Assembly (NCBI GenBank): GCA_035530115.1
Contig: DATKVL010000109.1
Coordinates: 1-46,197, forward strand
Direction: 5' to 3'
DNA from: Dehalococcoidia bacterium
GTDB taxonomy: Bacteria > Chloroflexota > Dehalococcoidia > GIF9 > AB-539-J10
Length of the DNA: 46,197 nt
Of the stretch, positions 1 to 46,197 are shown in pieces (the stretch's first letter is position 1; the number at the start of each line of letters is the position of its first letter). Under the pieces are notes generated by a model. It did no database searches. It was given only the letters and a program-made list of their open reading frames with translations, and had not been told where the DNA came from. The translations under genes were made by a program, and so were the position numbers.

Positions 1-141
1 GTTGAAGATCAGGCTATAATGGTTGATGTGTTTAAGAATATTAGGGATAATAAATTACACGAGCAGGTATCCTTTCCTCAACAGCTATTTAATATGGTAG
101 GTGGAGTTTATGAGAAGAGGACTGGAAAGAAGTTAGAAGTA
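1..141. repeat. Terminal direct repeat (assembly/circularisation overlap), identical to 46057..46197
   Basis: Bases 1-141 (gttgaagatcaggctataatgg...agttagaagta) reappear exactly at 46057-46197. The repeat lies inside an open reading frame. Confidence 0.95.
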
Positions 142-3100
142 CTAGGCGGAGTTAATAAATCTGAGATTACTGTTGATAAGATAATCTCTGAATTCGACAA
201 TACATCTCTGGCCAAAGGTGAGGGTTATGAGATTAGAGATAAGAGAAGATTTGAATCTCCTGAGTCAGCACAAAAGGTTGCTGAACGTAAAGGCGCAGAT
301 CATGAAGTGATTAAGATAGGTGACAAGTATGCAGTAGGAAAGTTCATTGAAACTGATATTCCTGAATATGCTTCGATGGATGCTCTTAAAGCTGATCTTG
401 AAGTTATGAGTGAAATCCCCTATGCTAAAGCCAAGATAGAAGCTGAGCAGCCAGAGGGTTCGGAATTCTGGGTGGCTAAGGTAGGGGATAAATATTATAG
501 GACTGTTATTAAAGATCCTAATGCTCCTGTACGTCCTAATGTAGACTTTGTACCTGAAGAAGTTAAAGGTGTAGAGTCTGAGATTGAACCTACTCCTGAG
601 GTTCTTAAGGCTGAAGAGGTTCAGTTGAAAAAGGATCTTAAGGCTTTAGTTAAGGAGAGTAAGAAGGTAGATGCTCCTAAAGAAACAATCCGTCCAGAGA
701 TTGCAGATGCTTTTAAGAAGTATAAAGAACGCTATGTGGATAAAATCAACGTAGCAAAAGAAGTTCCAGTAACACCGAAAGATCTTCCGGTCATTGATTC
801 TAACTTTGCTACCTTCAAGTCTGAGGCTGAGGGTAATACTTACAAGGAAGCTACTGGAAAAAAGGGGGAGTTGATTCAAGATCCCTTGAGTAAAGAATGG
901 TTTATTGAACCTGAGTTGGAAGGATTTGAAGATCTTGGATGGGAAGATGGAGTGGAGAGTCTTACTTCTGAACATAGGAATAGGATCTCAGATGAGACTC
1001 TTGACTATGGTGAGATGAGTGAGGATGGAACTAGAGATCTCTTCAGTATATTCAGTAATGAGAGAGGGTCAGTAGATGTAACCCCTCTTCGTATAGCGGT
1101 AGATAAAATGGAACAAGTTGTTGAGGCATCTAAGAAAGCAGGGAAGAGTGTTGATGAATTCTTAGATATGATAGGTATGAGTCCTGAATCTATTGCCCAG
1201 TTCAAAGTAGCCTTAGCACAAATGCCTAAGGATAAGGAAACGCTTAGAAGTTTAGATCCTATTACTGAAAGGATCCTTAATCCAAGTGGCCCCGTAGTAC
1301 ATCAAACTGTTAAGAGGAATAAGTTAGGTGAGATTAAAAGTGTAATGCCTCCTATCACTCAAGTATTATCTTCTAAGATAATGAATGCTACTAGACATAA
1401 TATCTGGGGAGACTTGAATGTTAAGGTTGATCCTGTTAGTGGGAGGGAAATAACTAACGTTCACACAGGAACTATTCAGCGGTATCTTCAGGCTACTGAA
1501 ACTAGGATTAATGCCTTTAGAAGATTTGGACTCTCTGAAATCTATCGTGATTGGAGAGAGCTTAAGACTAAAAAAGAGTTGGAGTATAACTCTTTAGGTA
1601 AGGAGATTACACTTAAGAAGGATAGTCTTACTAAAAAAGAAAGAGAAGGATTAGCTCTGGCTGCTTATGCAAATATGAAGGGTGGAGAGGAAGCCTTCAC
1701 TGCTATGGGAATTAAGCCTGAAGATATTCCTATTATGAATGCTAAGCAAATGGAAGTATTCAATTGGATGACTAAGACTACCTCTAAGATGTTGGATAGA
1801 GTTAACTATGTCCGTACTCATACAGGACAGAAGCCTATTCCTAGACTCCTTGATAAAAATGGTAAAGAGAACTATCTCCCTCTCATGAGACAGATGAATG
1901 TTCTCAGAGAGATGGGAGTACTAGAGGGAATCACCACTACGGACGCTCGTAGAATTTCATCCATATCTAGTGACTACCATGGGATTTTTAATCCTCATGC
2001 TAAGGTACGTAAGGTATCAGATATTCCTATTGAGTTGGATGTATTCAAAGTAATGGAGTCTTATCTTAATTACACACTGGAGGAGATTTATACTGGGCCT
2101 CTTGCTGCACAACTTAAGGAATTAGCTACAGTACCACTACCTAAGCCTGGAGGTAAAGGTACTGTTATACTTAAGAATCATAACCCAGCACTGTCTCAAC
2201 TTCTTCTTAAGTGGTCTGATGAGATAATGGGAATAGATAGAACCTCTTCTATTATGGCTATTGAGAATCCATTCATCAGGAATGTGGCTCAACAGTTGAG
2301 TAAGAATATAGTTGTGGGAATTATAGGTGGGAATCTTCAGACATTTGTCAAACAATTTACGGCCCTCATAGGTGTATATGCTAACCTTGGTTTACTTGCA
2401 TCTTTATATGGGGCAGGTAGGTATATGATTGAGAAACCTTTTAAGGGAAGTAAGTCAGAAGCTCAGACTCTTTCCAACTCTCTTCATATCCGTAAAGCTG
2501 AATTGATATGGAGTGATTTTGTAGAACAGATGAGGTTGGGAACTCTGAAGGGAGGAAAGGCTATAGCCACTAAGATGGCTTTTGCCCCTATGGACCTAAT
2601 CGATAGTGTGGTAGCTGAGATTGGATGGAATGCTGGATTTCATTATGCTAAAGGTAAATTGAAGTTAAGGGAAAAAGATGCTATAGCCTATGCTGATGAT
2701 CTTGTAGAGAGAACTCAAGGTATGGGAACTAGAGGAGCTGTTTCTCCTATTCAGGCCAGCATTGCTACCAAATGGCTTACGCTTCTTCAGACCTTTGGAA
2801 TCGCAGATTTTAATTATATCTTACAGGATATAGCTGGGGTTAAAAATCCTGATATAACTAAACCTCAACAGGTAAGTAGAGCTTTTAGGTACAGCATAGG
2901 TGTAATGGTTATAGGAGAAATGTTCAAAGCAGCGGGACTTAACTCTCCATTTCCTACACCTGTTGATGCGTTTATGGAATCAAGAGATGAAGGTAAAGGA
3001 ATTCCTTCTGCCACCTTTAGTGCTTTGTTAGAGTTCACTGAAAAGCTTCCAGTATGGGGCGGATCAACTAAGTATGGAAGTAGTCTTGGTGGGGTAATTG

Positions 3101-3399
3101 GAGAGTTTGCACAGGATGTGCCAGAGGCTGCTAAGGCTGTTAATGATCTTATGGATTGGGGCAGTATGACTAAACGTCAGAAGTTGAATGCTAGCATGTT
3201 GATAGCTAAGTCGGTTGGATATGCTTGGGGTATTCCTATGACTAATCAGATACTTAAGGGAGTTAAGACTGCTAGCAGAGGGGGAGATCCTTATCAGATT
3301 ATCTTGGGGATTTATATAGATGAAAAGAAAAAGAAGAAGGGAGGAACTCCTAATTTTAAATTAGAAAGCCCCTCCCTTAAATTACCTAAAGGTCTATAA
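1..3399 (+). CDS. Giant virion/internal (ejection or tape-measure-like) protein, C-terminal part. Continues from 44920 across the circular junction for a total of about 1,511 aa.
   Basis: Frame 1 is open from base 1. Both 46057 and 1 are in the same frame as the ATG at 44920. Hydrophobic segments such as NIVVGIIGGNLQTF...LGLLASLYGAG are present. It is the last gene of the late arm. Confidence 0.85.
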   Translation, partial: VEDQAIMVDVFKNIRDNKLHEQVSFPQQLFNMVGGVYEKRTGKKLEVLGGVNKSEITVDKIISEFDNTSLAKGEGYEIRDKRRFESPESAQKVAERKGADHEVIKIGDKYAVGKFIETDIPEYASMDALKADLEVMSEIPYAKAKIEAEQPEGSEFWVAKVGDKYYRTVIKDPNAPVRPNVDFVPEEVKGVESEIEPTPEVLKAEEVQLKKDLKALVKESKKVDAPKETIRPEIADAFKKYKERYVDKINVAKEVPVTPKDLPVIDSNFATFKSEAEGNTYKEATGKKGELIQDPLSKEWFIEPELEGFEDLGWEDGVESLTSEHRNRISDETLDYGEMSEDGTRDLFSIFSNERGSVDVTPLRIAVDKMEQVVEASKKAGKSVDEFLDMIGMSPESIAQFKVALAQMPKDKETLRSLDPITERILNPSGPVVHQTVKRNKLGEIKSVMPPITQVLSSKIMNATRHNIWGDLNVKVDPVSGREITNVHTGTIQRYLQATETRINAFRRFGLSEIYRDWRELKTKKELEYNSLGKEITLKKDSLTKKEREGLALAAYANMKGGEEAFTAMGIKPEDIPIMNAKQMEVFNWMTKTTSKMLDRVNYVRTHTGQKPIPRLLDKNGKENYLPLMRQMNVLREMGVLEGITTTDARRISSISSDYHGIFNPHAKVRKVSDIPIELDVFKVMESYLNYTLEEIYTGPLAAQLKELATVPLPKPGGKGTVILKNHNPALSQLLLKWSDEIMGIDRTSSIMAIENPFIRNVAQQLSKNIVVGIIGGNLQTFVKQFTALIGVYANLGLLASLYGAGRYMIEKPFKGSKSEAQTLSNSLHIRKAELIWSDFVEQMRLGTLKGGKAIATKMAFAPMDLIDSVVAEIGWNAGFHYAKGKLKLREKDAIAYADDLVERTQGMGTRGAVSPIQASIATKWLTLLQTFGIADFNYILQDIAGVKNPDITKPQQVSRAFRYSIGVMVIGEMFKAAGLNSPFPTPVDAFMESRDEGKGIPSATFSALLEFTEKLPVWGGSTKYGSSLGGVIGEFAQDVPEAAKAVNDLMDWGSMTKRQKLNASMLIAKSVGYAWGIPMTNQILKGVKTASRGGDPYQIILGIYIDEKKKKKGGTPNFKLESPSLKLPKGL
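3319..3378 (-). terminator. Candidate intrinsic terminator for the leftward arm, embedded in the 3' end of the giant gene
   Basis: On the minus strand AAGGGAGG (3378-3371) pairs with CCTCCCTT (3344-3337), with an inner CTAATTT/AAATTAG stem. A CTTCTTCTTTTTCTTTTC tract follows. Confidence 0.4.
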
Positions 3400-17476: not shown

Positions 17477-17517
17477 ATAAGTAACCTCAAATGATCGGGT
17501 TGGTACAATCTAAGAGT

Positions 17518-17553
17518 AAAATAAAAGTCCCGTTGATGAAGAAGGCACGGGAC
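17518..17553 (-). terminator. Rho-independent terminator
   Basis: On the minus strand GTCCCGT (17553-17547) pairs with ACGGGAC (17533-17527) around a 13-nt loop, followed by TTTTATTTT. Confidence 0.6.
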
Positions 17554-17581
17554 CACACCTTTAATACAGTCCTACAGGGGG

Positions 17582-17974
17582 TTAGGACTGCACACCCAGA
17601 GAGGCCAGGAACTCAGCCTGCTTCTCAGGAGACCAAGAAGAGAAGGCATTCTGAATTGCCACAGCAGGATCGACCTGAGTCTTCTCGATAACCATACCGG
17701 GCTTCCAAGCGGATACGAGGGTCTGAATCTGATCTACGGAGAGACCAGCTTTCAACTTGGCACGAATGATAGACTGGAGACCAACCTTGGCATTGGCCTT
17801 GTAGTTGGAGTGCACGGCCTCAGCACCACAGATTTCAACTGCAGAATCCAGATTGTCACCAAAGTCAAATTCAACAGTAGCCTGCTTCCAGGACGGCTGA
17901 CCTTCCTCATTCAGTACAACATTACCGTCTTTGTCCTTTACCTGATACTTTGCTTCTACAGTTTCCATAGCCAT
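17582..17974 (-). CDS. Hypothetical protein (130 aa) in a monocistronic promoter-terminator cassette
   Basis: AAGGAG SD before MAMETVEAKYQ. Flanked by its own sigma70 promoter and terminator. GC-richer than its neighbours. Confidence 0.7.
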   Translation of the reverse strand: MAMETVEAKYQVKDKDGNVVLNEEGQPSWKQATVEFDFGDNLDSAVEICGAEAVHSNYKANAKVGLQSIIRAKLKAGLSVDQIQTLVSAWKPGMVIEKTQVDPAVAIQNAFSSWSPEKQAEFLASLGVQS

Positions 17975-18032
17975 GATTGAGACTCCTTGTTTGAATTGAA
18001 GTGAATCGGCATAATTGCCATTTGTTGAATAC

Positions 18033-18061
18033 ACAATACCATATGAATGTACAGTTGTCAA
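18033..18061 (-). promoter_or_regulatory. sigma70-type promoter (TTGACA-N17-TATTGT)
   Basis: On the minus strand TTGACA is at 18061-18056 and TATTGT at 18038-18033, separated by a 17-nt spacer. Confidence 0.6.
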
Positions 18062-18074
18062 CATCTTGGTGAAA

Positions 18075-18281
18075 TTATTTTTTGGGCTTATGAATCCAAT
18101 AGTAGTAATTACAAATAGGACACTGCTCTTCTGAACTACTTATATCAGATGGGCATCTATCACCAGACTGGAGACCAACCTTATTAGCATAATCATATTC
18201 CCTATCACAAGCACAGAATATCTGAACTCTCTTATACTGATTGTTAATGTAGAATTTCTTCTTCTTAGTTTTCTTAGTCAT
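18075..18281 (-). CDS. Zinc-ribbon miniprotein (68 aa)
   Basis: CAC...CPSD...CPIC. AGGAGA SD directly after noncoding element A. Confidence 0.6.
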   Translation of the reverse strand: MTKKTKKKKFYINNQYKRVQIFCACDREYDYANKVGLQSGDRCPSDISSSEEQCPICNYYYWIHKPKK

Positions 18282-18302
18282 TGAAGTCTCCTAATTATTT
18301 AT

Positions 18303-18490
18303 CAGTGCGCGGGCGTCGCAAGCTCCGCCCTGCGCAACAACATACATGAGAAAACCAGTGTACCGCTTCGATCTAAAGCGAGTATCCGCCGCCATACATG
18401 AGAGCCAGTCCGTCTGCCCGGCCACTTTCCTATCGGTACTACCCGACATACAAAAGCAACTGCGCTTTTGAAAAAGAATAAGATCATGAT
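18303..18490 (-). ncRNA. Noncoding element A, candidate structured RNA and paralog of 30491..30696
   Basis: Six collinear blocks are shared with element B at near-identical spacing. GC-rich hairpins are present. The overlapping 61-aa Arg-rich track ORF has no SD. Confidence 0.55.
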
Positions 18491-18493
18491 TCT

Positions 18494-23963: not shown

Positions 23964-24455
23964 TTAATATTCTTCTGCGTCCCCAGGATCGACAAAGATC
24001 GGATCGCCATCCTCGTCCAACTCTGGAGTGTTGTCCACTTCCTCCTGCTTTACTTCGTTGCCACCTGCTTCGAGAAACTTACTCCAGTCGTTCCTGATCT
24101 GCCCCTGCCATCCCCCTCGTACATTCCACAAGAAAGCCCTAACCTCCTCCGGTGACTTCCCGGCAAGGTATGCCCGAATGTCGTCCTCAGTAATCGGGCG
24201 GGTACGATTGCGGCCGCCCTCGAAGAGAGGGACTCCGAATGTTACAATCTTCGGGAGTTTCCCACTGAGGAACTTATCCCAGTTGTTCCTGATCTGCCCC
24301 TGCCATATGACAATCTGATTCGCAATGGCATGACGCTGAATGATCGAGGGATCAACCCCGTCAAATGAACATTCAAACTCTACTTCCTTGAAATTCTTCG
24401 CGGCCTTCTGCTCCGCATCCATTGCCACTTTAAACTTCACAGTTGTTGTGCTCAT
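23964..24455 (-). CDS. First early protein (163 aa) with an internal duplication and acidic C-terminal tail
   Basis: WQGQIRNNWDKFL and WQGQIRNDWSKFL repeats. C-terminus DEDGDPIFVDPGDAEEY. AAGGAGA SD. Lies downstream of the consensus early promoter. Confidence 0.75.
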   Translation of the reverse strand: MSTTTVKFKVAMDAEQKAAKNFKEVEFECSFDGVDPSIIQRHAIANQIVIWQGQIRNNWDKFLSGKLPKIVTFGVPLFEGGRNRTRPITEDDIRAYLAGKSPEEVRAFLWNVRGGWQGQIRNDWSKFLEAGGNEVKQEEVDNTPELDEDGDPIFVDPGDAEEY

Positions 24456-24638
24456 GATGATTCTCCTTATTGTCGGAAAGTCATCTGCCCTTTAGGCCAG
24501 GTATCATGTATTCCAGCTCTGTTACGCCATGCCCTACGGCTCTCCCGTATCCCATGTCGCCAGCCCTACTGGTTCGGGCGATGCCCGTTATGTCAATGAT
24601 CGGTGGGGCGTTATGTATTGTGCCCCGATGTTGATCCC

Positions 24639-24666
24639 ATTATACCAAATTTGAGGGATTTGTCAA
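24639..24666 (-). promoter_or_regulatory. Leftward early promoter P_L, consensus sigma70 with extended -10
   Basis: On the minus strand TTGACA is at 24666-24661, then a 16-nt spacer ending in TGg, then TATAAT at 24644-24639. Confidence 0.75.
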
Positions 24667-24817
24667 ATTAGGCGTCCAAAACCCGCATGGTCCCCCCATC
24701 GGGGGTTGGGGGTTGGCTGTACCCCATAGATCCTTGTATGTAAGTTGTGTCGTAAGTTTGGTATTGGTACCAATTGGTGATTAATCCATCCTCTTAGCAC
24801 TCTATCCTTAGCACTTT

Positions 24818-24846
24818 GTGCTATGTGGATTTAATCCATACAGCAC
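24818..24846 (-). promoter_or_regulatory. 29-bp quasi-palindromic motif, copy M6, between the divergent promoters
   Basis: Minus strand reads gtgctgtatgGATTAAATCcacatagcac. Flanked by two TTAGCAC repeats (24794-24800 and 24808-24814). Confidence 0.75.
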
Positions 24847-24853
24847 AGGCCAA

Positions 24854-24869
24854 GATCACTGAGGTGATC
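24854..24869. promoter_or_regulatory. Perfect palindrome GATCAC-tgag-GTGATC, a candidate operator
   Basis: Read directly from the sequence. Lies between M6 and P_R. Confidence 0.4.
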
Positions 24870-24925
24870 CACTGGGCGAGGTTCAGAATTGCTAACTAGT
24901 AGCCTACTATGTGCCAAATGATGCC

Positions 24926-24954
24926 TTGATTTATTCCTATGAGCATGGTAAAAT
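24926..24954 (+). promoter_or_regulatory. Rightward promoter P_R (TTGATT-N17-TAAAAT)
   Basis: TTGATT at 24926-24931 and TAAAAT at 24949-24954. GGAGG SD and the ATG at 24978 follow. Confidence 0.6.
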
Positions 24955-26653: not shown

Positions 26654-26980
26654 ATGTCTAACACAGTTGTAGTTGGTGAGAGTTTTATCAATGTGACATT
26701 GGATGGGGCTACGGCTTTCGATATTACTTCTGCAACTTTGGGGTTGGCAGATGGGGCTAGGGTAAATGGGATTAGAGCAAAGTCCCTACAGTTTGTCCCG
26801 GCCGCTACTGATAATATTCTTACTGTACGTGAAGGTAGTGCCTCTGGCCCTGTGATCTTCAAGTGTAAAGCAGCCAATGCATATGACCTTAAGCAACTTT
26901 CCTTGACGGGTAAACCTCAGAAACTTTATATAACAGGTAATGAAGCTACAGCTACAGTAATGCTTATTGTGGAAATTTAA
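26654..26980 (+). CDS. Hypothetical beta-rich protein (108 aa)
   Basis: GAGG SD. TAATG coupling to TerL. Confidence 0.6.
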   Translation: MSNTVVVGESFINVTLDGATAFDITSATLGLADGARVNGIRAKSLQFVPAATDNILTVREGSASGPVIFKCKAANAYDLKQLSLTGKPQKLYITGNEATATVMLIVEI

Positions 26981-28497
26981 TGAACCCTAATCAAGACTCA
27001 GGGTTAGATGAAGTCCTAGCACATTGTATTCTGGATGTTAAGGTCTTTTGTAAGGTGATCTTTCCAGATATATTCTATGCTGACTTCTCCACCCTACATG
27101 ATCAGATATTTGAGTTGATCAATGCAGGTCATAAGAGAATTGCTATTGCAGCTCCTCGTGGTATTGGTAAGACTTCTATAGCCCGGGCTGTAGTAATGAG
27201 GTCGATTCTATTTCGACTTCACTCATTTATCGTATATATGAGTAATTCAGCCACTAGTGCTGAAATGCAGACGGAGAATGTTAAGAGGGATCTTCTCAGT
27301 AATCAGCAAGTAAAACAGATGTTCGGGAATATCAAGGATGCTATTGGTACTGATAAAGGGATGGATGAGAGCTTTGCTAAGAGTGCTTGGACTGCTTATG
27401 GATCAACATTCATTCTACCTCGTGGTGCAGGTCAACAGGTACGTGGACTCAACTGGGCTAATCATCGCCCGGAGTTAGTTATCATTGATGACTTGGAAGA
27501 TAAGAATGAGATCAAGAGTGAGGAGAATAGGAAGAAGCTGAAGGAATGGTTTCACTCAGACTTGATGAAGACAGAGGATAAATACTCAGAGGGGTGCGTA
27601 TTCATTTACATAGATACCATCAAACATGAGGATTCTCTCCTGGTTGATTTAATAGAATCTCCCGAGTGGGCATCTGTTCAGTTGTCCATCTGTGATGGGG
27701 ATTACAAGAGTTATGATCCCAACTATATGACAGATGAGGAGATTGCCAAGGAGGTTGAGGAACATAGGAGGCTGGGAACACTGGATGCCTTCTATATGGA
27801 GCGCATGAATATTCCTATATCCTCGGAAGATGCGGTCTTCAAGCAAGAGTACTTCAAGTACTTTGAAGATCAGATGGATAAGTTGAAGATTGGTGAGGAG
27901 GAGGTTAGGACTTATAATCTTCTTCACATTACCATAGTGGATCCTGCAAGAACAGTTAAATTGCAGAGTGCTGATTCGGCCATCCTTACTGTGGCCATTG
28001 ATAGGAAGAGTCGTCGCATATATGTCAGGGAAGTGACTAGTAGGAAGTTCTACCCTGATGAGTTATATGAGGAGATGTTCAGACAGGTGACTGTCTATGG
28101 GTCTTTCATTCTTGGTTACGACGCAGTGGGGTTGAGTAACTTTATAACCCAGCCGATTGAGAATGAGTGTAGGATCCGAAGTAAGCATCCCATGCTTATT
28201 GAGCTTCCTGCTAAGCGGAGTAAAGAGGAGAGAGTTGCCACTCTTGCCCCCCTCTACAAGATGGGATATGTGTATCATAACAAGAGTGGCTGCGGAAAGT
28301 TAGAGGGGCAACTCCTGGGGTTTCCCCGTAGTAAGTTGTGGGACGCGATGGATGCATTAGCTTACATCAACTACATCCTAGATAAGCATGCTATTTACTT
28401 TGACCCTTCAGATGATACTGAAGAAGCTCCCCCAGATGAAGATTATGCTTCATTGGAGTGCGAAGGCGAGATGGAAGATATGGGTCAGATCATTTGA
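26980..28497 (+). CDS. terL: Terminase large subunit
   Basis: Walker A AAPRGIGKTS and Walker B LVIIDDLED. C-terminal nuclease-sized domain. The portal gene follows. Confidence 0.88.
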   Translation: MNPNQDSGLDEVLAHCILDVKVFCKVIFPDIFYADFSTLHDQIFELINAGHKRIAIAAPRGIGKTSIARAVVMRSILFRLHSFIVYMSNSATSAEMQTENVKRDLLSNQQVKQMFGNIKDAIGTDKGMDESFAKSAWTAYGSTFILPRGAGQQVRGLNWANHRPELVIIDDLEDKNEIKSEENRKKLKEWFHSDLMKTEDKYSEGCVFIYIDTIKHEDSLLVDLIESPEWASVQLSICDGDYKSYDPNYMTDEEIAKEVEEHRRLGTLDAFYMERMNIPISSEDAVFKQEYFKYFEDQMDKLKIGEEEVRTYNLLHITIVDPARTVKLQSADSAILTVAIDRKSRRIYVREVTSRKFYPDELYEEMFRQVTVYGSFILGYDAVGLSNFITQPIENECRIRSKHPMLIELPAKRSKEERVATLAPLYKMGYVYHNKSGCGKLEGQLLGFPRSKLWDAMDALAYINYILDKHAIYFDPSDDTEEAPPDEDYASLECEGEMEDMGQII

Positions 28498-28528: not shown

Positions 28529-28540
28529 TCGGTGTGTACT

Positions 28541-30487
28541 ATGCCTCCAGTTCTAAGGGGAGAAGGTAATTATAGATCATCTAACCCGTCCATGGGAGTT
28601 AAGCATGAGTATGCTTATCCAGATGGATTGGATTTTACTCCTGGCTCTAAACTTCATAATCGCGTCAGAGATGAAGTTATGGAGAGGGCCTACAATAGTG
28701 CTAAGGTTATGTCTAGGAGACATGCTGCGTGGAATGAGATAGACTTCACTCTTACAGCCTACATCCCTGCAGATGAGAAGGAGAATCTTCTTAAGGAGAA
28801 GGATTCAAGAAAGCCTATCTCTGTAGTCTTTCCATACTCTTATACAGTATTGGAAACTCTTCTGAGTTACTATGTAGCGGCCTTTCTTCAGGAACCTATC
28901 TTCAGATATGAAGGTACTGGACCGAGTGATGTAATTGGAGCAATCCTTCTAGAAAAACTTATCAGCCTCCAGTGCCAAAAGAATAAGGTGGGGCTTAACT
29001 TACATACTCAAGCTAGAGATGCATTCTCTTATGGGTTTGGAGTTACTACCCCTACTTGGGTTACTGAGTATGGGAGGAAGTCTGTTAAAAAGACTTCTGG
29101 GGGATTCCTGGGATTTGGTAGTAAGACTACTACTGTAATGGAGAATCAACTTCTTTTTGAGGGGAATTCTCTTGAAAATATTGACCCTTATTTATATCTC
29201 CCAGATGTTAATGTCCCTATACATGAACCTCAAAGGGGGGAGTATGTAGGATGGTTGAACACTACCAACTACATGACTCTGTTGAGTGAAGAAAGGAATG
29301 ACTCAGACCTGTTCAATGTTAAGTATCTCAAACAGTTGAATGGGAGAAGATCGGGGATTATCTCTGGTGACAATACTGGTAGGAATACCAAGAGTGGTAT
29401 GTCCACTAGGGATCAATTTGCTGAGAGTACTTCCAGTGCTTTGGACAGGGTGAAAATGTTCGTTAGACTCATTCCTAAGGATTGGGGCCTGGGAGATAGT
29501 GAGTACCCTGAGATGTGGTACTTTGAACTTGGGTCTGATGAGATTGTACTACGGGCTAACCCAGCTAATCTAGATCACAATAAGTTCCCAGTGAGTGTAA
29601 TCGCCCCTGATTATGATGGATACTCATTGGCCCCCATCAGTAGGATAGAAATTCTCTACGGAATGCAAGGAGTCCTCGACTTCATGTTCAACAGTCATGT
29701 TGCTAATGTGAGGAAAGCCATTAACGATATGATTATCTACGATCCTTACCTAGTGAATAGTAATGATCTTAAGAACCCGGCTCCTGGAAAACTCATCAGA
29801 CTCCGTCGCCCAGCTTGGGGAAAGGGAGTTAAAGACGTCGCTCAACAGCTTGGGGTTTCGGACGTCACACGGGGAAACATTGCTGATTCAACATGGCTCG
29901 TACAGTGGATGGATCGGATTTCTGGAGCCGATTCCGCTATGTCAGGATCACTTAGGCAGGGAGGTCCTGATCGGCTTACTGGGACAGAATTCCAAGGTAC
30001 CCGCGCTGGAGGACTTAACAGGCTGGAGAGAATTGCTAAAGTAGTAGGTATGCAGGGCTTGCAAGATATAGGTATGTTCTTCGGCCATCATAACAAACAA
30101 ATGATGACTAATGAGAGTTATATTAAACTTGCTGGAGATTGGCAAGATGTTCTTCTCAAGGAATTTGAACAGTCTGTAGATCGTGGACGAGTCATTGTAA
30201 GTCCTGATCAGCTAGACATCAACTATAATGTAATGGTCAGGGATGGATCCATCCCAGGTGGAAACTACGCTGATACTTGGGTTCAACTATTTCAGATCCT
30301 AGGATCTAATCCTGAACTCGCGCAGAACTTTGATGTAGTACGTATCTTCACACATATTGCCCGTAACTTGGGTGCAAAGAACGTTAATGACTTTGTAAGG
30401 AAGGGTGGTAACATCCAACAGAAATCTATGTCGAATGAAGGAATTAGAAGTCAAGTTGATGCAGGTAACTTGGTGCCATTAACTTAG
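28541..30487 (+). CDS. Portal protein
   Basis: About 648 aa, immediately after TerL. The ATG at 28541 is preferred over the GTG at 28532. Confidence 0.75.
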   Translation: MPPVLRGEGNYRSSNPSMGVKHEYAYPDGLDFTPGSKLHNRVRDEVMERAYNSAKVMSRRHAAWNEIDFTLTAYIPADEKENLLKEKDSRKPISVVFPYSYTVLETLLSYYVAAFLQEPIFRYEGTGPSDVIGAILLEKLISLQCQKNKVGLNLHTQARDAFSYGFGVTTPTWVTEYGRKSVKKTSGGFLGFGSKTTTVMENQLLFEGNSLENIDPYLYLPDVNVPIHEPQRGEYVGWLNTTNYMTLLSEERNDSDLFNVKYLKQLNGRRSGIISGDNTGRNTKSGMSTRDQFAESTSSALDRVKMFVRLIPKDWGLGDSEYPEMWYFELGSDEIVLRANPANLDHNKFPVSVIAPDYDGYSLAPISRIEILYGMQGVLDFMFNSHVANVRKAINDMIIYDPYLVNSNDLKNPAPGKLIRLRRPAWGKGVKDVAQQLGVSDVTRGNIADSTWLVQWMDRISGADSAMSGSLRQGGPDRLTGTEFQGTRAGGLNRLERIAKVVGMQGLQDIGMFFGHHNKQMMTNESYIKLAGDWQDVLLKEFEQSVDRGRVIVSPDQLDINYNVMVRDGSIPGGNYADTWVQLFQILGSNPELAQNFDVVRIFTHIARNLGAKNVNDFVRKGGNIQQKSMSNEGIRSQVDAGNLVPLT

Positions 30488-30490
30488 ATC

Positions 30491-30696
30491 TCAAATCATG
30501 CTTATTCTTTTTCAAGGTGCTGTTGCTGTTGTATTATACTACTGCTGATGTAGGACAGTGGCCTGGCAAGCCCATGGTATTCTCATTGTGTACCTGCGAC
30601 GGGCATGTTAGATGCACATTTGGTATTCTCATCTTTATACGTGTTTGATGTAGGTTTTTTTAGCGAGCATTGGCGCGGAACGCACCATGCGAGCAT
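30491..30696 (+). ncRNA. Noncoding element B, candidate structured RNA and paralog of 18303..18490
   Basis: 229-bp gap between portal and the next gene. Blocks CTTATTCTTTTTCAA, GTTGCTGTTGTAT, AGTGGCCTGGCA, TCTCAT, TTAGAT and TGGTATTCTCAT are collinear with element A. Confidence 0.55.
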
Positions 30697-30716
30697 AGAA
30701 AAGTTTAAGGAGTCTT

Positions 30717-31019
30717 ATGGAACGTGAACTTAAAAATCTACCATTGAATCCAGTAAGAGACTATACACCTATCTCTTCACCTGGATCTATTGGAAGTTTT
30801 ATCGAAAGTACTATCCATATAGACTTCATCAATGAGTTAACTCTTCGTATCGAGCAACTTAGAGATTATAATGAAGTTTGTGATAGTAAGAAGTATCTTG
30901 AAACACGTGGGGCCATAGCAGCTTTAAGACTTGTAGGGGATATATTCCAAGACTTGATGCAAAATGCTATGACTGATAACACTACTCCAAATGAAGAGGA
31001 AATTGAAGATGAACCTTGA
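30717..31019 (+). CDS. Hypothetical acidic protein (100 aa)
   Basis: AAGGAG SD 5 nt upstream. Confidence 0.65.
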   Translation: MERELKNLPLNPVRDYTPISSPGSIGSFIESTIHIDFINELTLRIEQLRDYNEVCDSKKYLETRGAIAALRLVGDIFQDLMQNAMTDNTTPNEEEIEDEP

Positions 31020-33726: not shown

Positions 33727-35043
33727 ATGGTGAATGAGATGGCATTTCTTGGTATGCGTGGTACTGGTGATTGGGTTACTGATCAGCGTCCGAAAAATTG
33801 GCGGGAGGCGATTCTCTATCGCTATCCCAATGGCTCCGCCCCTCTTACTGCAATCTTGAGTAAAATGACAAGTGAGAAAACTACTGATCCTGAGTTCAAC
33901 TGGTGGACTAAATCTCTGGCCACTCAGCGGGCAACGGTGACTGGGGTCTACACTGACTCTGGCCTTTCTGTAGCTTATGTAAGTGGGGCTCTTGCTAATG
34001 ATCAACTCTATGTGAAGATGAGTTCTGATGATATTAGTCACTTCCGTACTGGTCATATTGCACTTCTTCGGGATGCAAGTGATCTTACAGTTGATGTAGT
34101 GGCTAAGGTTATTGGCCGTGTTTCTAGTGGGGAAAACTCTTACATCCAGGTAGTACTGCTTGAGGCTGATGATAACTCTACTGCTGGTGATCTCAGTAAT
34201 TGTGATGCAGCTTTGATCATCGGTAATGCTAATGCTGAGGGCGCTGCTATGCCTGATGCGATTAGTTATGGCCCAGCTAAGTGGTACAACTTCACTCAAA
34301 TCTTTAGGACCCCTCTTGAGATGACTCGTACTGCTATGCAGACCCGTCTTCGGACTGGTGAGCATTATAAGGGAGCTAAGAGGGAAGCTCTGGAATTGCA
34401 CTCCATTGAGATGGAGAAAGCTTTCTTGTTTGGTGTACCTTCTGAGCGTACTGGTGATAATGGTAAGCCTGAACGTACTACTCTGGGTATCATTCCTGCA
34501 ATCAAGGGTGGGTATACTGGAAGTGGCGGTGATGCCGGCACGGTCAATAACTTTGCAGCCAATACTGATTTCTCCGGGCAGACTTGGTTGCAGGGCGGTG
34601 AGGAGTGGTTGGATACTCAGTTGGAAGTTATCTTCAGGAAGGGAAGTTCTGAGAAGTTGGCATTCGCTGGATCGGGCGCAATTCTTGGTATTAACTCCCT
34701 GATTAAGGCCGGAGGTAATTTCGATTACTCTGCGGCCACGATGGACTATGGTATCAAAGTAACCAAGTGGGTAACTGCTTTCGGTACTATCAACATCATG
34801 ACCCATCCACTCTTCTCTCATGAGGTCACCACCAGGAATGCAATGGTGATCTTGGAGCCGAAGGACATTAAGTATCGCTTCATTCAGGATACTATGTACA
34901 AAGCCGATGATCGTCTGCAGAAGGGTGGTTGGACTTCTCGTGATGGCATCAAGGAAGAGTATCTCACTGAGTGTGGTCTTGAGTACCATCACCCTGATGG
35001 TTGGGGTTATCTGTATGGTTTCAATACTGCTAACGCAGTCTAA
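33727..35043 (+). CDS. Major capsid protein
   Basis: 438 aa, last gene of the head module and followed by a strong hairpin. N-terminal MAFLGMRGTGDW...DPEFNWW is capsid-like. Confidence 0.7.
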   Translation: MVNEMAFLGMRGTGDWVTDQRPKNWREAILYRYPNGSAPLTAILSKMTSEKTTDPEFNWWTKSLATQRATVTGVYTDSGLSVAYVSGALANDQLYVKMSSDDISHFRTGHIALLRDASDLTVDVVAKVIGRVSSGENSYIQVVLLEADDNSTAGDLSNCDAALIIGNANAEGAAMPDAISYGPAKWYNFTQIFRTPLEMTRTAMQTRLRTGEHYKGAKREALELHSIEMEKAFLFGVPSERTGDNGKPERTTLGIIPAIKGGYTGSGGDAGTVNNFAANTDFSGQTWLQGGEEWLDTQLEVIFRKGSSEKLAFAGSGAILGINSLIKAGGNFDYSAATMDYGIKVTKWVTAFGTINIMTHPLFSHEVTTRNAMVILEPKDIKYRFIQDTMYKADDRLQKGGWTSRDGIKEEYLTECGLEYHHPDGWGYLYGFNTANAV

Positions 35044-44920: not shown

Positions 44921-46197
44921 TGGCAAACCCGTTTGATCAGTTTGACTCTGTAGCAACTGGGAGTAATGCTTTTGATCAGTTTGATGAAGTTCCTATAGTT
45001 GCTACTCCTGCAGCTCCAGTTAAAGTTGAGGCTCCTAAAGTTCAACCTAAGACTCTCTTTGGAGATGCAGTAGTTCCTGCATTGATGGAATCTCTAACTA
45101 AGTCTGAGCCTTCTGTTGCAGAACCTGGATTATATGGGGCTGCTAAGGATGTAGCATTGGGAGTTCCTGAAGCTATTGCAGGAATGATCTCTGGACTTAT
45201 AGCTTTCCCATTTGGGCAAGTTGCATCAGCTCCTACAGCTCTTACAGCTATGCTTCCTCAAAGTAGGGGTGATAAGTTTGATGTAGCTGGAGGTTTTGCT
45301 GAAGGACAGAAAGTTGCAGAGAAGATAAGTGCTGCCGGAACTTATCATCCTACTACTGATACAGGCAAACTGTTAATGAAGCCTATTGATTTAGTATTTG
45401 GAACTCTTCTTGGATCAGTAGGGAATACTGTAAGACAGTTGGCAGATCCTACCACTCCAAAAGAAGAGGTTGATAAAAGAGTTCAAGCATCTCATTATGT
45501 TACTAATTCACTTCTTCTTGGACTTCCATTAGTTACTGGTAAATTGCAGAAAGGTAAACCTTTAACTATCTCAGATTTCAAGGAAGTTGAGAAGGCTATC
45601 CCAGTTGATACACCTCCTGATGTAGCATCCGCAGCATTAGAGGCATTGAGGAATTTCAATATTAAGGAAGCTGTATCTTCAAATGTTAAGACTAAGTTTG
45701 AAGGTAATCAGTCTATAGCTGAAGGTCTTATGACTGAGGCTCTTAAGAGAGAGGGCCATGCTAAGGGGGCATTGAATAGAACTGCTAAGATTATCAGTGA
45801 TCTTGAAGGAGACGCAAAAGGAGTAGATTTTAAAAGTATGAAAGGTGTAGGTCCGAAGTCTCAGGCTTTGATTGAGAAGTTTATTAAAGATAGAGATGCT
45901 GTACTTACTCCTGAGATTTCCCCTGTTGAGGAGACTGCAACTCCTATTAATCTTCCAGAAATGGGTAAGAAGTTAGAACCTACAGGCACTGATATTCTAA
46001 CTTCTGAAATGGATAATCCTGATGTAGCTCTTAAACATTTTGAGAACTCTATTCCAGTTGAAGATCAGGCTATAATGGTTGATGTGTTTAAGAATATTAG
46101 GGATAATAAATTACACGAGCAGGTATCCTTTCCTCAACAGCTATTTAATATGGTAGGTGGAGTTTATGAGAAGAGGACTGGAAAGAAGTTAGAAGTA
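44920..46197 (+). CDS. Giant virion protein, N-terminal part (continues into 1..3399)
   Basis: GGAGGG SD and TAATG coupling. My translation begins MANPFDQFDSVATGSNAFDQFDE... An HhH-like GVGPKSQALIEKF is present. There is no stop before the window end. Confidence 0.85.
   Translation, partial: MANPFDQFDSVATGSNAFDQFDEVPIVATPAAPVKVEAPKVQPKTLFGDAVVPALMESLTKSEPSVAEPGLYGAAKDVALGVPEAIAGMISGLIAFPFGQVASAPTALTAMLPQSRGDKFDVAGGFAEGQKVAEKISAAGTYHPTTDTGKLLMKPIDLVFGTLLGSVGNTVRQLADPTTPKEEVDKRVQASHYVTNSLLLGLPLVTGKLQKGKPLTISDFKEVEKAIPVDTPPDVASAALEALRNFNIKEAVSSNVKTKFEGNQSIAEGLMTEALKREGHAKGALNRTAKIISDLEGDAKGVDFKSMKGVGPKSQALIEKFIKDRDAVLTPEISPVEETATPINLPEMGKKLEPTGTDILTSEMDNPDVALKHFENSIPVEDQAIMVDVFKNIRDNKLHEQVSFPQQLFNMVGGVYEKRTGKKLEV

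Follow-up and report, generated by a model that had tools for sequence, protein, structure and literature searches.

Intercistronic hairpins that set mRNA ends and stability are found in the REP-type stabilisers and in the RNase III sites of phage T7; REPs are high-copy host elements, and in the classical T7 RNase III sites an irregular duplex extends over about two helical turns. The nutL/nutR sites of lambda and the putL/putR sites of HK022 are paralogous cis-acting RNA sites, one per divergent arm, that are promoter-proximal in the early operons and span 30–75 nt, with a linear boxA-like motif beside a short hairpin in nut and two stem-loops in put. A third kind, the promoter-early stem-loop (PeSL) cassettes, was described in T4-type phages (Arbiol et al. 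2010, PMC2839356; Comeau et al. 2014, PMC4122927). PeSLs are defined by their promoter, measure about 100 bp, number about 50 per genome and concentrate upstream of ORFans in hyperplastic regions (PMC2839356, PMC4122927), and their stem-loops have been shown experimentally to attenuate transcription (PMC2839356). The element analysed here, judged from its aligned copies, is shown to be a clade-restricted noncoding cassette of about 160–240 nt that is present twice in its phage genome, as copy B in the late operon and copy A in the early arm. It belongs to no described family; its kind, the phage intergenic hairpin-based regulatory cassette, is already known.

With PeSLs the element shares the plan of a repeated intergenic noncoding cassette that reaches from an upstream stop codon to a downstream Shine-Dalgarno sequence and ATG, a stable GC-rich stem-loop in all copies (by analogy a candidate for attenuation, the demonstrated feature of PeSLs), a tie to the gain and loss of small ORFans at the A site and, at element A, a consensus sigma-70 promoter that comes after the stem-loop and an AT-rich tract. 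It differs from them in number and place (two copies of 160–240 bp in a 46-kb genome, one of them in the conserved head module), in having no sigma-70 promoter within the cassette and no credible promoter at B, and in its most conserved part, a 95-nt 5' block to which nothing in PeSLs corresponds; the two kinds share no sequence homology, and the phage here is of podovirus type. As for PeSL-type recombination, variable cargo beside A and mosaic junctions at B and in A were found, the events being few. Like the REP and T7 RNase III hairpins, the element lies between cistrons, is paralogous, keeps structure more than sequence and has no U-tract; unlike them, it has a stem of 9–11 bp with a single bulge that is tied to a long conserved upstream sequence. 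With its 2-bp apex this stem is also shorter than the classical RNase III sites. The resemblance to nut and put lies in two sites that are oriented with transcription and in each of which a hairpin with a covarying stem accompanies a conserved linear sequence. However, A and B sit about 4.6 kb and about 5.5 kb into their arms, show no evident boxA- or boxB-like motif, extend over 160–240 nt and keep a variable distance of 60–150 nt between block and hairpin.

The window, that is, the whole stretch of 46,197 nt that was analysed, is a complete phage genome of about 46 kb. Its bases 1–141 are identical to bases 46057–46197, the last 141 of the window, which gives a closed size of about 46,056 bp, and an ORF from about 44923 crosses the genome junction to 3399: its 425 codons are open to the window end, and the frame runs on into a 1126-aa ORF at 19–3399. 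The identical ends and the frame spanning the junction indicate that the genome is complete, either closed into a circle or terminally redundant; what looks like a 1.3-kb gap at the 3' end of the window is therefore coding. The phage is podovirus-type with SU10-like head genes, and no DNA-level relatives of it were found among GenBank phages. A minus-strand arm (about 3.4–23 kb) carries the replication genes (primase, DNA polymerase, ligase and a Sak4-like protein), and the late arm carries the packaging and head genes listed in Table 1. Between the divergent arms lies a probable early control region, 620 bp without an ORF (24319–24938), with the genome's only perfect sigma-70 consensus promoter, which is TG-extended (24666–24639, minus strand), and two GC-rich hairpins at 24565–24608 and 24671–24714. 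Within the portal gene, a plus-strand segment at 29582–30180 is 87–97% identical at the nucleotide level in all close relatives, compared with 67–86% elsewhere in the gene, the cause being either strong constraint or a shared recombination patch.

Element B fills the widest gap of the late operon, the next widest being 72 and 44 bp, and is followed by a 100-aa gene that starts at 30717. The 72-bp gap lies directly after the major capsid gene and holds the most stable local hairpin of the genome (35049–35092, plus strand, -26.6 kcal/mol); no U-tract follows this hairpin, which may stabilise the mRNA or be a terminator of a non-canonical kind. So stable a structure right behind the major capsid gene places U-tract-less hairpins in the repertoire of the phage, and since a 130-aa gene of the early arm ends in a canonical terminator (see below), both hairpin classes coexist in the genome.

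Table 1. Positions of elements A and B, their parts and the genes around them (coordinates of the window).
Feature	Position	Strand	Remarks
Large terminase	26980-28497	+	late arm
SU10-type portal	28532-30487	+	late arm
SU10-type major capsid protein	33727-35043	+	late arm
Last portal codon and stop, ACT TAG	30482-30487	+	insertion junction
Gap, element B	30488-30716 (229 bp)	+	from portal stop to ATG of 100-aa gene
5' sequence-conserved block, ~95 nt	30498-30586	+	common to all 11 distinct A and B copies
Pyrimidine tract	30501-30513	+	within 5' block of B
GCTGTT, two copies	30519-30530	+	within 5' block of B
Core GATGTAGGACAGTGGCCTGGCAAGCCCA	30547-30574	+	within 5' block of B
Box 1 TGGTATTCTCAT	30575-30586	+	within 5' block of B
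Middle module	30587-30661	+	in long B and A copies; missing from L003/L004/L012
Box 2, second copy of the 12-nt box	30621-30632	+	middle module
9-nt repeat TGATGTAGG	30546-30554 and 30646-30654	+	second copy in middle module
T7 run	30655-30661	+	middle module
Direct repeat GCGAGCAT	30663-30670 and 30689-30696	+	flanks hairpin
3' bulged GC stem-loop GCAT-T-GGCGCG / GAA / CGCACC-ATGC	30667-30690	+	no U-tract after it
Shine-Dalgarno AAGGAG and ATG of 100-aa gene	30707-30719	+	downstream edge of element B
Element A	18282-18493 (212 bp)	-	paralogue of B in early arm
Element A core	18434-18409	-	paralogous core
Element A boxes	18407-18398 and 18357-18346	-	paralogous boxes
Element A 3' bulged stem-loop GCGC-A-GGGCG / GAGCTTGCGA / CGCCC-GCGC	18307-18335	-	same architecture as B
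Sigma-70-like promoter TTGACA-17-TATTGT, TG-extended, 10/12	18033-18061	-	downstream of A; drives 130-aa gene

The preliminary description of this DNA had reported a noncoding element in a 229-bp gap of the late operon, after the portal, and had called it a paralogue of element A, and both statements were borne out. All six frames carry stops in every B copy, and six-frame translation of the 11 distinct copies yielded no common open frame, so a coding capacity was rejected. Positions 7–81 of B match 18491–18415 on the minus strand (76% over 79 nt, E = 1e-8), and the only two copies that a profile of the shared block detects in the genome are A and B, at 78–88 bits; by these alignments, the paralogy of the two elements and their conservation in relatives were confirmed to lie far above chance. 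Box 2, the T7 run, the repeat GCGAGCAT, the hairpin TGGCGCG-GAA-CGCACCA and an ATG at 30498 had been located correctly. Box 1 is present as described but begins at 30575 instead of 30577, and the ACCTGC half of a proposed distal stem is likewise present but spans 30592–30597 instead of 30593–30598. The internal box repeat of B scores moderately above shuffled sequences (13.5 versus 9.0 ± 1.3). An origin from a tandem unit of ~53 nt was discarded, as TRF returned nothing and the internal similarity is restricted to boxes of about 20 nt. A genome-wide scan found no occurrence of the boxes and core motif elsewhere in the genome beyond chance; they are confined to elements A and B, and the idea of genome-wide binding sites was dropped. 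No terminal inverted repeats or flanking target duplications were found at the element, and with no copies outside the clade either, a MITE or other transposon-derived element was rejected. Searches for known RNAs were equally negative: Rfam 15 gave no match at the gathering threshold over the whole window and only chance-level matches to the two elements under permissive filters (E of 0.2 or more, 19 bits or less), and a tRNA/tmRNA search found none. Folds of the whole elements are not above shuffles (z = +0.21 and -0.98). A candidate sigma-70 promoter inside B (TTTTCA-17-TATTAT, a 9/12 match) was rejected, being one of 42 in the genome compared with 56 in shuffles.

Portal relatives were taken from IMG/VR, ENA and Logan, and conservation of the element was looked for among them. 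It was found in all portal relatives that are at least 81% identical, 7 of 7 lineages carrying element B. The element occurs in a long form of 225–240 bp (L001/L002, L068 and L067, 79–84% identical) and a short form of 161–164 bp that lacks the middle module (L003/L004/L012). More than ten lineages at 40–75% portal identity (L005–L011, L013–L015 and L069–L071) have no gap; there, the stop of the portal gene and the start codon that follows overlap by 4 bp (ATGA or GTGA). Portals at filled sites end in GNLVPL-T and the stop, while those at empty sites continue with GGAM, RGMG or VEG to theirs; these differing C-termini indicate that the insertion junction supplies the last portal codon and stop. 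This comparison of filled and empty sites identifies element B as an insertion specific to the clade, at a junction where the two genes formerly overlapped, which the preliminary description had not recognised; the portal and the next gene were presumably translationally coupled before it. A pattern based on the invariant columns was run against collections of viral, metagenome and prokaryote genomes and returned clade members and chance matches only, with no copy outside the clade. Weak matches (21–22 bits) in a Desulfobacteria MAG with a type I-C CRISPR-Cas operon (L043/L099) and in a Bacillaceae chromosome (L026/L085) had been preselected by the pattern, have no common context and were judged to be chance. 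The top outlier among the weak-match loci is a 220-bp gap in the cas operon of the former (L043:4054–4275), which lies between cas7 and a 190-aa gene upstream of cas4 and contains a 22-bit core match; it too was pattern-preselected and judged to be chance.

Two parts of the element are conserved in different ways. The 5' block is 70–73% identical to that of L012/L004, a comparison in which 4-fold degenerate sites are 48–50% identical in the portal gene and 54–62% in the downstream gene. Set against the synonymous sites of both flanking genes, the block is thus shown to be conserved above the apparent neutral level, although part of this excess could reflect recent recombination and not constraint because the region is mosaic. 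Its invariant columns concentrate in the core (14/25, permutation p about 0.02). No supported fold was obtained for the block with RNAalifold (-3.1 kcal/mol for 7 copies, -1.2 kcal/mol for 11 copies). An apparent GCUKUU:GAMAGU covariation is broken in L072 and was rejected, and a helix between GAUGUAGGA and UUCUCAU of box 1, paired in 79.5% of cells, shows no covariation: its columns barely vary, and 201 of 500 shuffles equal it. Pairing of the pyrimidine tract with the downstream ribosome-binding site as an anti-Shine-Dalgarno element was also rejected, the z scores of -0.35 to -1.7 not being significant.

The 3' bulged stem-loop is the best-supported feature of the element. All seven distinct versions fold alike, with 4 bp, a one-base 5' bulge and a further 5–7 bp, at energies of -10.4 to -22.2 kcal/mol and z scores of -2.4 to -5.4. 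In a structure-guided alignment, 7 of the 9 core pairs have undergone double compensatory changes. Pairing holds in 44 of 45 cells; permuting the columns gives 19.6 ± 5.1, and none of 20,000 permutations attained 44. The covariation shows that pairing of the predicted stem is under selection across five lineages; the hairpin of the preliminary description is thereby upheld by compensatory changes in relatives. It is this hairpin, and not the T-run, that is the conserved feature, a point that the earlier description had missed. The apex GAGCYUGCGA (DNA GAGCYTGCGA) is kept on three unrelated stems (A type, L012-type B and L067 B) and is shortened in the window copy of B and in L001/L068. The window B hairpin is the weakest version (-10.4 kcal/mol). 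Apart from its single C.A mismatch, which on the opposite strand would read as a G.U wobble, every pair in the stems is Watson-Crick, and for this reason the functional strand and action on RNA as opposed to DNA cannot be read from the hairpin. A U-tract behind the stem-loop is absent in every copy (GAGCAUAGAAAAG follows in B and ACUGAUAAAUAAUU in A), and a terminator scan of A and B called no site, so the hairpin does not qualify as an intrinsic (Rho-independent) terminator.

Element A is flanked by a 118-aa gene and a 68-aa ORF and has the orientation of these neighbours, and A and B are each co-oriented with local transcription. The gene upstream of A ends in ACTTAA, which may be compared with the portal end at B. 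Strong early promoters are located at 24666 and 23119, and A begins at 18493. Orthologues of A are found in L016/L056/L064 and in L072–L075; A is absent from the L012 phage lineage (L065/L066), where an unrelated 59-aa ORF is found, and from L080. In L016 and L072–L075 the A hairpin is followed by an AT-rich stretch, GATAAAAATAATTTCACCAAGATG, and then by the sigma-70 promoter, which in L072–L075 is the full consensus (TTGACA-17-TATAAT, 12/12). The promoter follows A and is not contained in it. The cargo between A and the 130-aa gene varies from nothing in L016 through the 68-aa ORF in the window to an HNH endonuclease in L072–L075, and the slot beside A is thus a hotspot for mobile genes. The sigma-70 promoter and the variable cargo slot directly downstream of A had escaped the preliminary description. 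The 68-aa ORF (18075–18281, minus strand) is Cys-rich, has its own Shine-Dalgarno sequence and gave no family match. An 8-bp direct repeat, AAATAATT, brackets it at 18300–18293 and 18080–18073, and the ORF with its flanks (18073–18300) is missing from the otherwise collinear L016, which makes it a 220-bp indel at microhomology. The HNH homing endonuclease (L072:1722–2219, also in L073, L074 and L075; PHROG 374, E = 2e-42) stands behind the perfect TTGACA-17-TATAAT, whose -35 half is common with the resident promoter. The conserved gene at 17477–18061 (minus strand) encodes 130 aa and not the 160 aa of the longest ORF, as its homologues begin at an internal Met. It ends in a canonical terminator, GUCCCGU...ACGGGAC-UUUUAUUUU (about 17552–17515), with a second hairpin before it, and is a self-contained, probably highly expressed unit.

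Both copies bear traces of recombination. The A copies of the window and of L016 are about 95% identical at positions 61–190 and 40–50% identical at positions 11–60, with a sharp boundary just ahead of the core. The patch in window A resembles the window's own B (31/44 matches), which suggests a conversion or recombination event in this copy. At B, identity to L001 and L068 rises from 75–80% at the portal 3' end to 90–97% from about 30630 into the downstream genes. This step places a recombination junction in or beside B, effectively a single event, and the argument from constraint is correspondingly weaker in comparisons with L001 and L068.

We tentatively interpret the element as a cis-acting intercistronic RNA cassette, the most probable of the readings considered, whose hairpin would attenuate transcription or set mRNA ends and so uncouple the portal from the head genes. 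The cassette was inserted at a gene boundary, where the portal and the next gene had overlapped by 4 bp, and is read in the direction of the genes around it. Its bulged stem-loop without a U-tract may be a partial transcription attenuator, a barrier that defines and protects mRNA ends, or both, so that the amount and lifetime of the portal message could be uncoupled from those of the downstream head-assembly genes. At A, the same hairpin might insulate the early genes from the strong promoter behind it, and the unstructured block of ~95 nt could be the docking site for the acting factor, whether a ribonuclease, an RNA chaperone or a phage protein. From sequence comparison we infer that the element acts at the RNA level, that it serves attenuation or stability and that a factor binds it. 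The interpretation draws its support from the insertion at an overlap, the lack of an open frame, the covariation of the stem, the conservation of the 5' block and the co-orientation with transcription, as well as from the order of hairpin, AT-rich tract and sigma-70 promoter at A, which matches that of PeSL attenuators (PMC2839356), and from the very stable U-tract-less hairpin after the major capsid gene. It is disfavoured by whole-element folds that are no better than shuffles, by the presence of the weakest hairpin version in window B itself, and by the lack of a U-tract, and hence of a canonical terminator. Attenuation between portal and capsid would also run opposite to the expected stoichiometry, unless the effect is one of stability and not of termination. 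A cis role in mRNA attenuation, processing or stability nevertheless remains the most economical reading of these sequences.

The same layout could also be produced by a pair of trans-acting small RNAs, cut from the operon transcripts with their 3' ends at the hairpin and base-pairing through the 5' block, with A supplying the RNA early and B late for the same, probably host, targets. A block kept in sequence but not structure, followed by a 3' hairpin kept in structure but not sequence, is typical of such RNAs, and the co-oriented paralogues, one per early and late arm, the clustering of the core-motif columns and the mosaic A copies, in which a conversion patch keeps the 5' block B-like, fit the idea as well. 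However, neither copy has a promoter of its own above chance, the hairpin has no U-tract behind it, a conserved stretch of 95 nt is longer than usual for a seed region, and pairing to 82 phage translation-initiation regions was no better than that of shuffled cores; we regard small RNAs as rather unlikely. About equally unlikely is a DNA-level recombination cassette of PeSL-like character, or a selfish duplicated intergenic segment, which would provide homology for module exchange and for its own spread, any regulation being secondary. The variable cargo beside A, the unrelated 59-aa ORF where A is missing, the block of 90–97% identity that begins in the 3' half of B next to a portal 3' end of 75–80%, the sharp mosaic boundary in the A copies and the stem-loop, AT-rich and sigma-70 layout at A, as in PeSLs (PMC2839356, PMC4122927), all point in this direction. 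On the other side, there are 2 copies per genome and not the roughly 50 of PeSLs, B has no promoter, terminal inverted repeats and target duplications are lacking, the cargo indels fall downstream of A (in the promoter or AT-rich tract) and not within it, and the mosaic junction at B amounts to one event; the compensatory upkeep of the stem, moreover, argues for a function beyond homology. Less probable again is that A and B are two sites or genes of an undescribed phage RNA regulatory system with a common recognition sequence and a bulged hairpin. The recognition sequence would comprise the core GAUGUAGGA-AGUGGCC-GGCA together with the UCUCAU boxes, and a phage or host factor would act through it on transcription elongation, RNA processing or host targets. 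Such a system would resemble nutL/nutR or putL/putR in function, without being related to them.

The distal stem ACCTGC/GTAGGT of the preliminary description, or else a pairing of box 2 with GATGTAGG, would with the T7 run behind it make an intrinsic terminator or attenuator. A structure UCUCAUC...GAUG-U-AGG followed by U7 can indeed form in the window, and T6–T7 is present in three of the four long B lineages. The relatives speak against it: the distal stem is not kept in L001, L068 or L067, the closest relatives carrying GATCATGCG in its place; the box 2 stem has an A.A mismatch in the same three; and the run shrinks to T6 in L001/L068 and to T4 in L067, while short B copies lack the module and A has no counterpart of the run. 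In addition, no terminator-like site was called, and the T7 run precedes the conserved hairpin and follows only a weak, non-conserved stem. A terminator at this position is therefore very unlikely. No better placed is the view that the element no longer has a function and is what decay has left of a gene or mobile-gene cassette. That the sites accept mobile genes, that the middle module is variable and that the window hairpin has a mismatch would agree with decay, but the stem is upheld by compensatory substitutions across five lineages, the 5' block is conserved above synonymous sites, no protein remnant is recognisable in any frame of any copy, and every sampled member of the sub-clade retains the element. 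The slightest chance is left to a small hydrophobic or leader peptide (MLILFQGAVAVVLYYC), which the preliminary description had left as a possibility for the 16-codon ORF at the ATG noted above and which is largely refuted as the functional product. A short hydrophobic ORF is found near the 5' end in window B, L004 and the A copies. There is no ATG, GTG or TTG start in L001, L068 and L067 (3 of 11 copies), however, and the frame shifts in L003 and also in A, where indels of 2 nt and 1 nt move it across the T-tract so that the same DNA encodes different residues. The predicted lengths are 11, 14, 16, 18 and 61 aa, no Shine-Dalgarno sequence precedes the ORF, and nucleotide conservation runs beyond its stop codon.

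If the cis-acting cassette is functional, these phages would constitute a natural experiment, in which closely related genomes differ only in having portal and head-assembly genes translationally coupled by a 4-bp overlap or separated by a structured noncoding cassette, and control of the portal-to-capsid expression ratio would be directly testable. Being tiny and restricted to phages of one uncultured clade, the family is of limited general importance unless it proves to act in trans, and element B is probably a modest regulatory spacer in messenger RNA. It adds to the phage intergenic cassettes an uncatalogued motif, absent from Rfam, that joins a linear block to a covarying bulged hairpin, and it provides an example of cassettes that are duplicated between early and late arms and located at recombination junctions and cargo slots.
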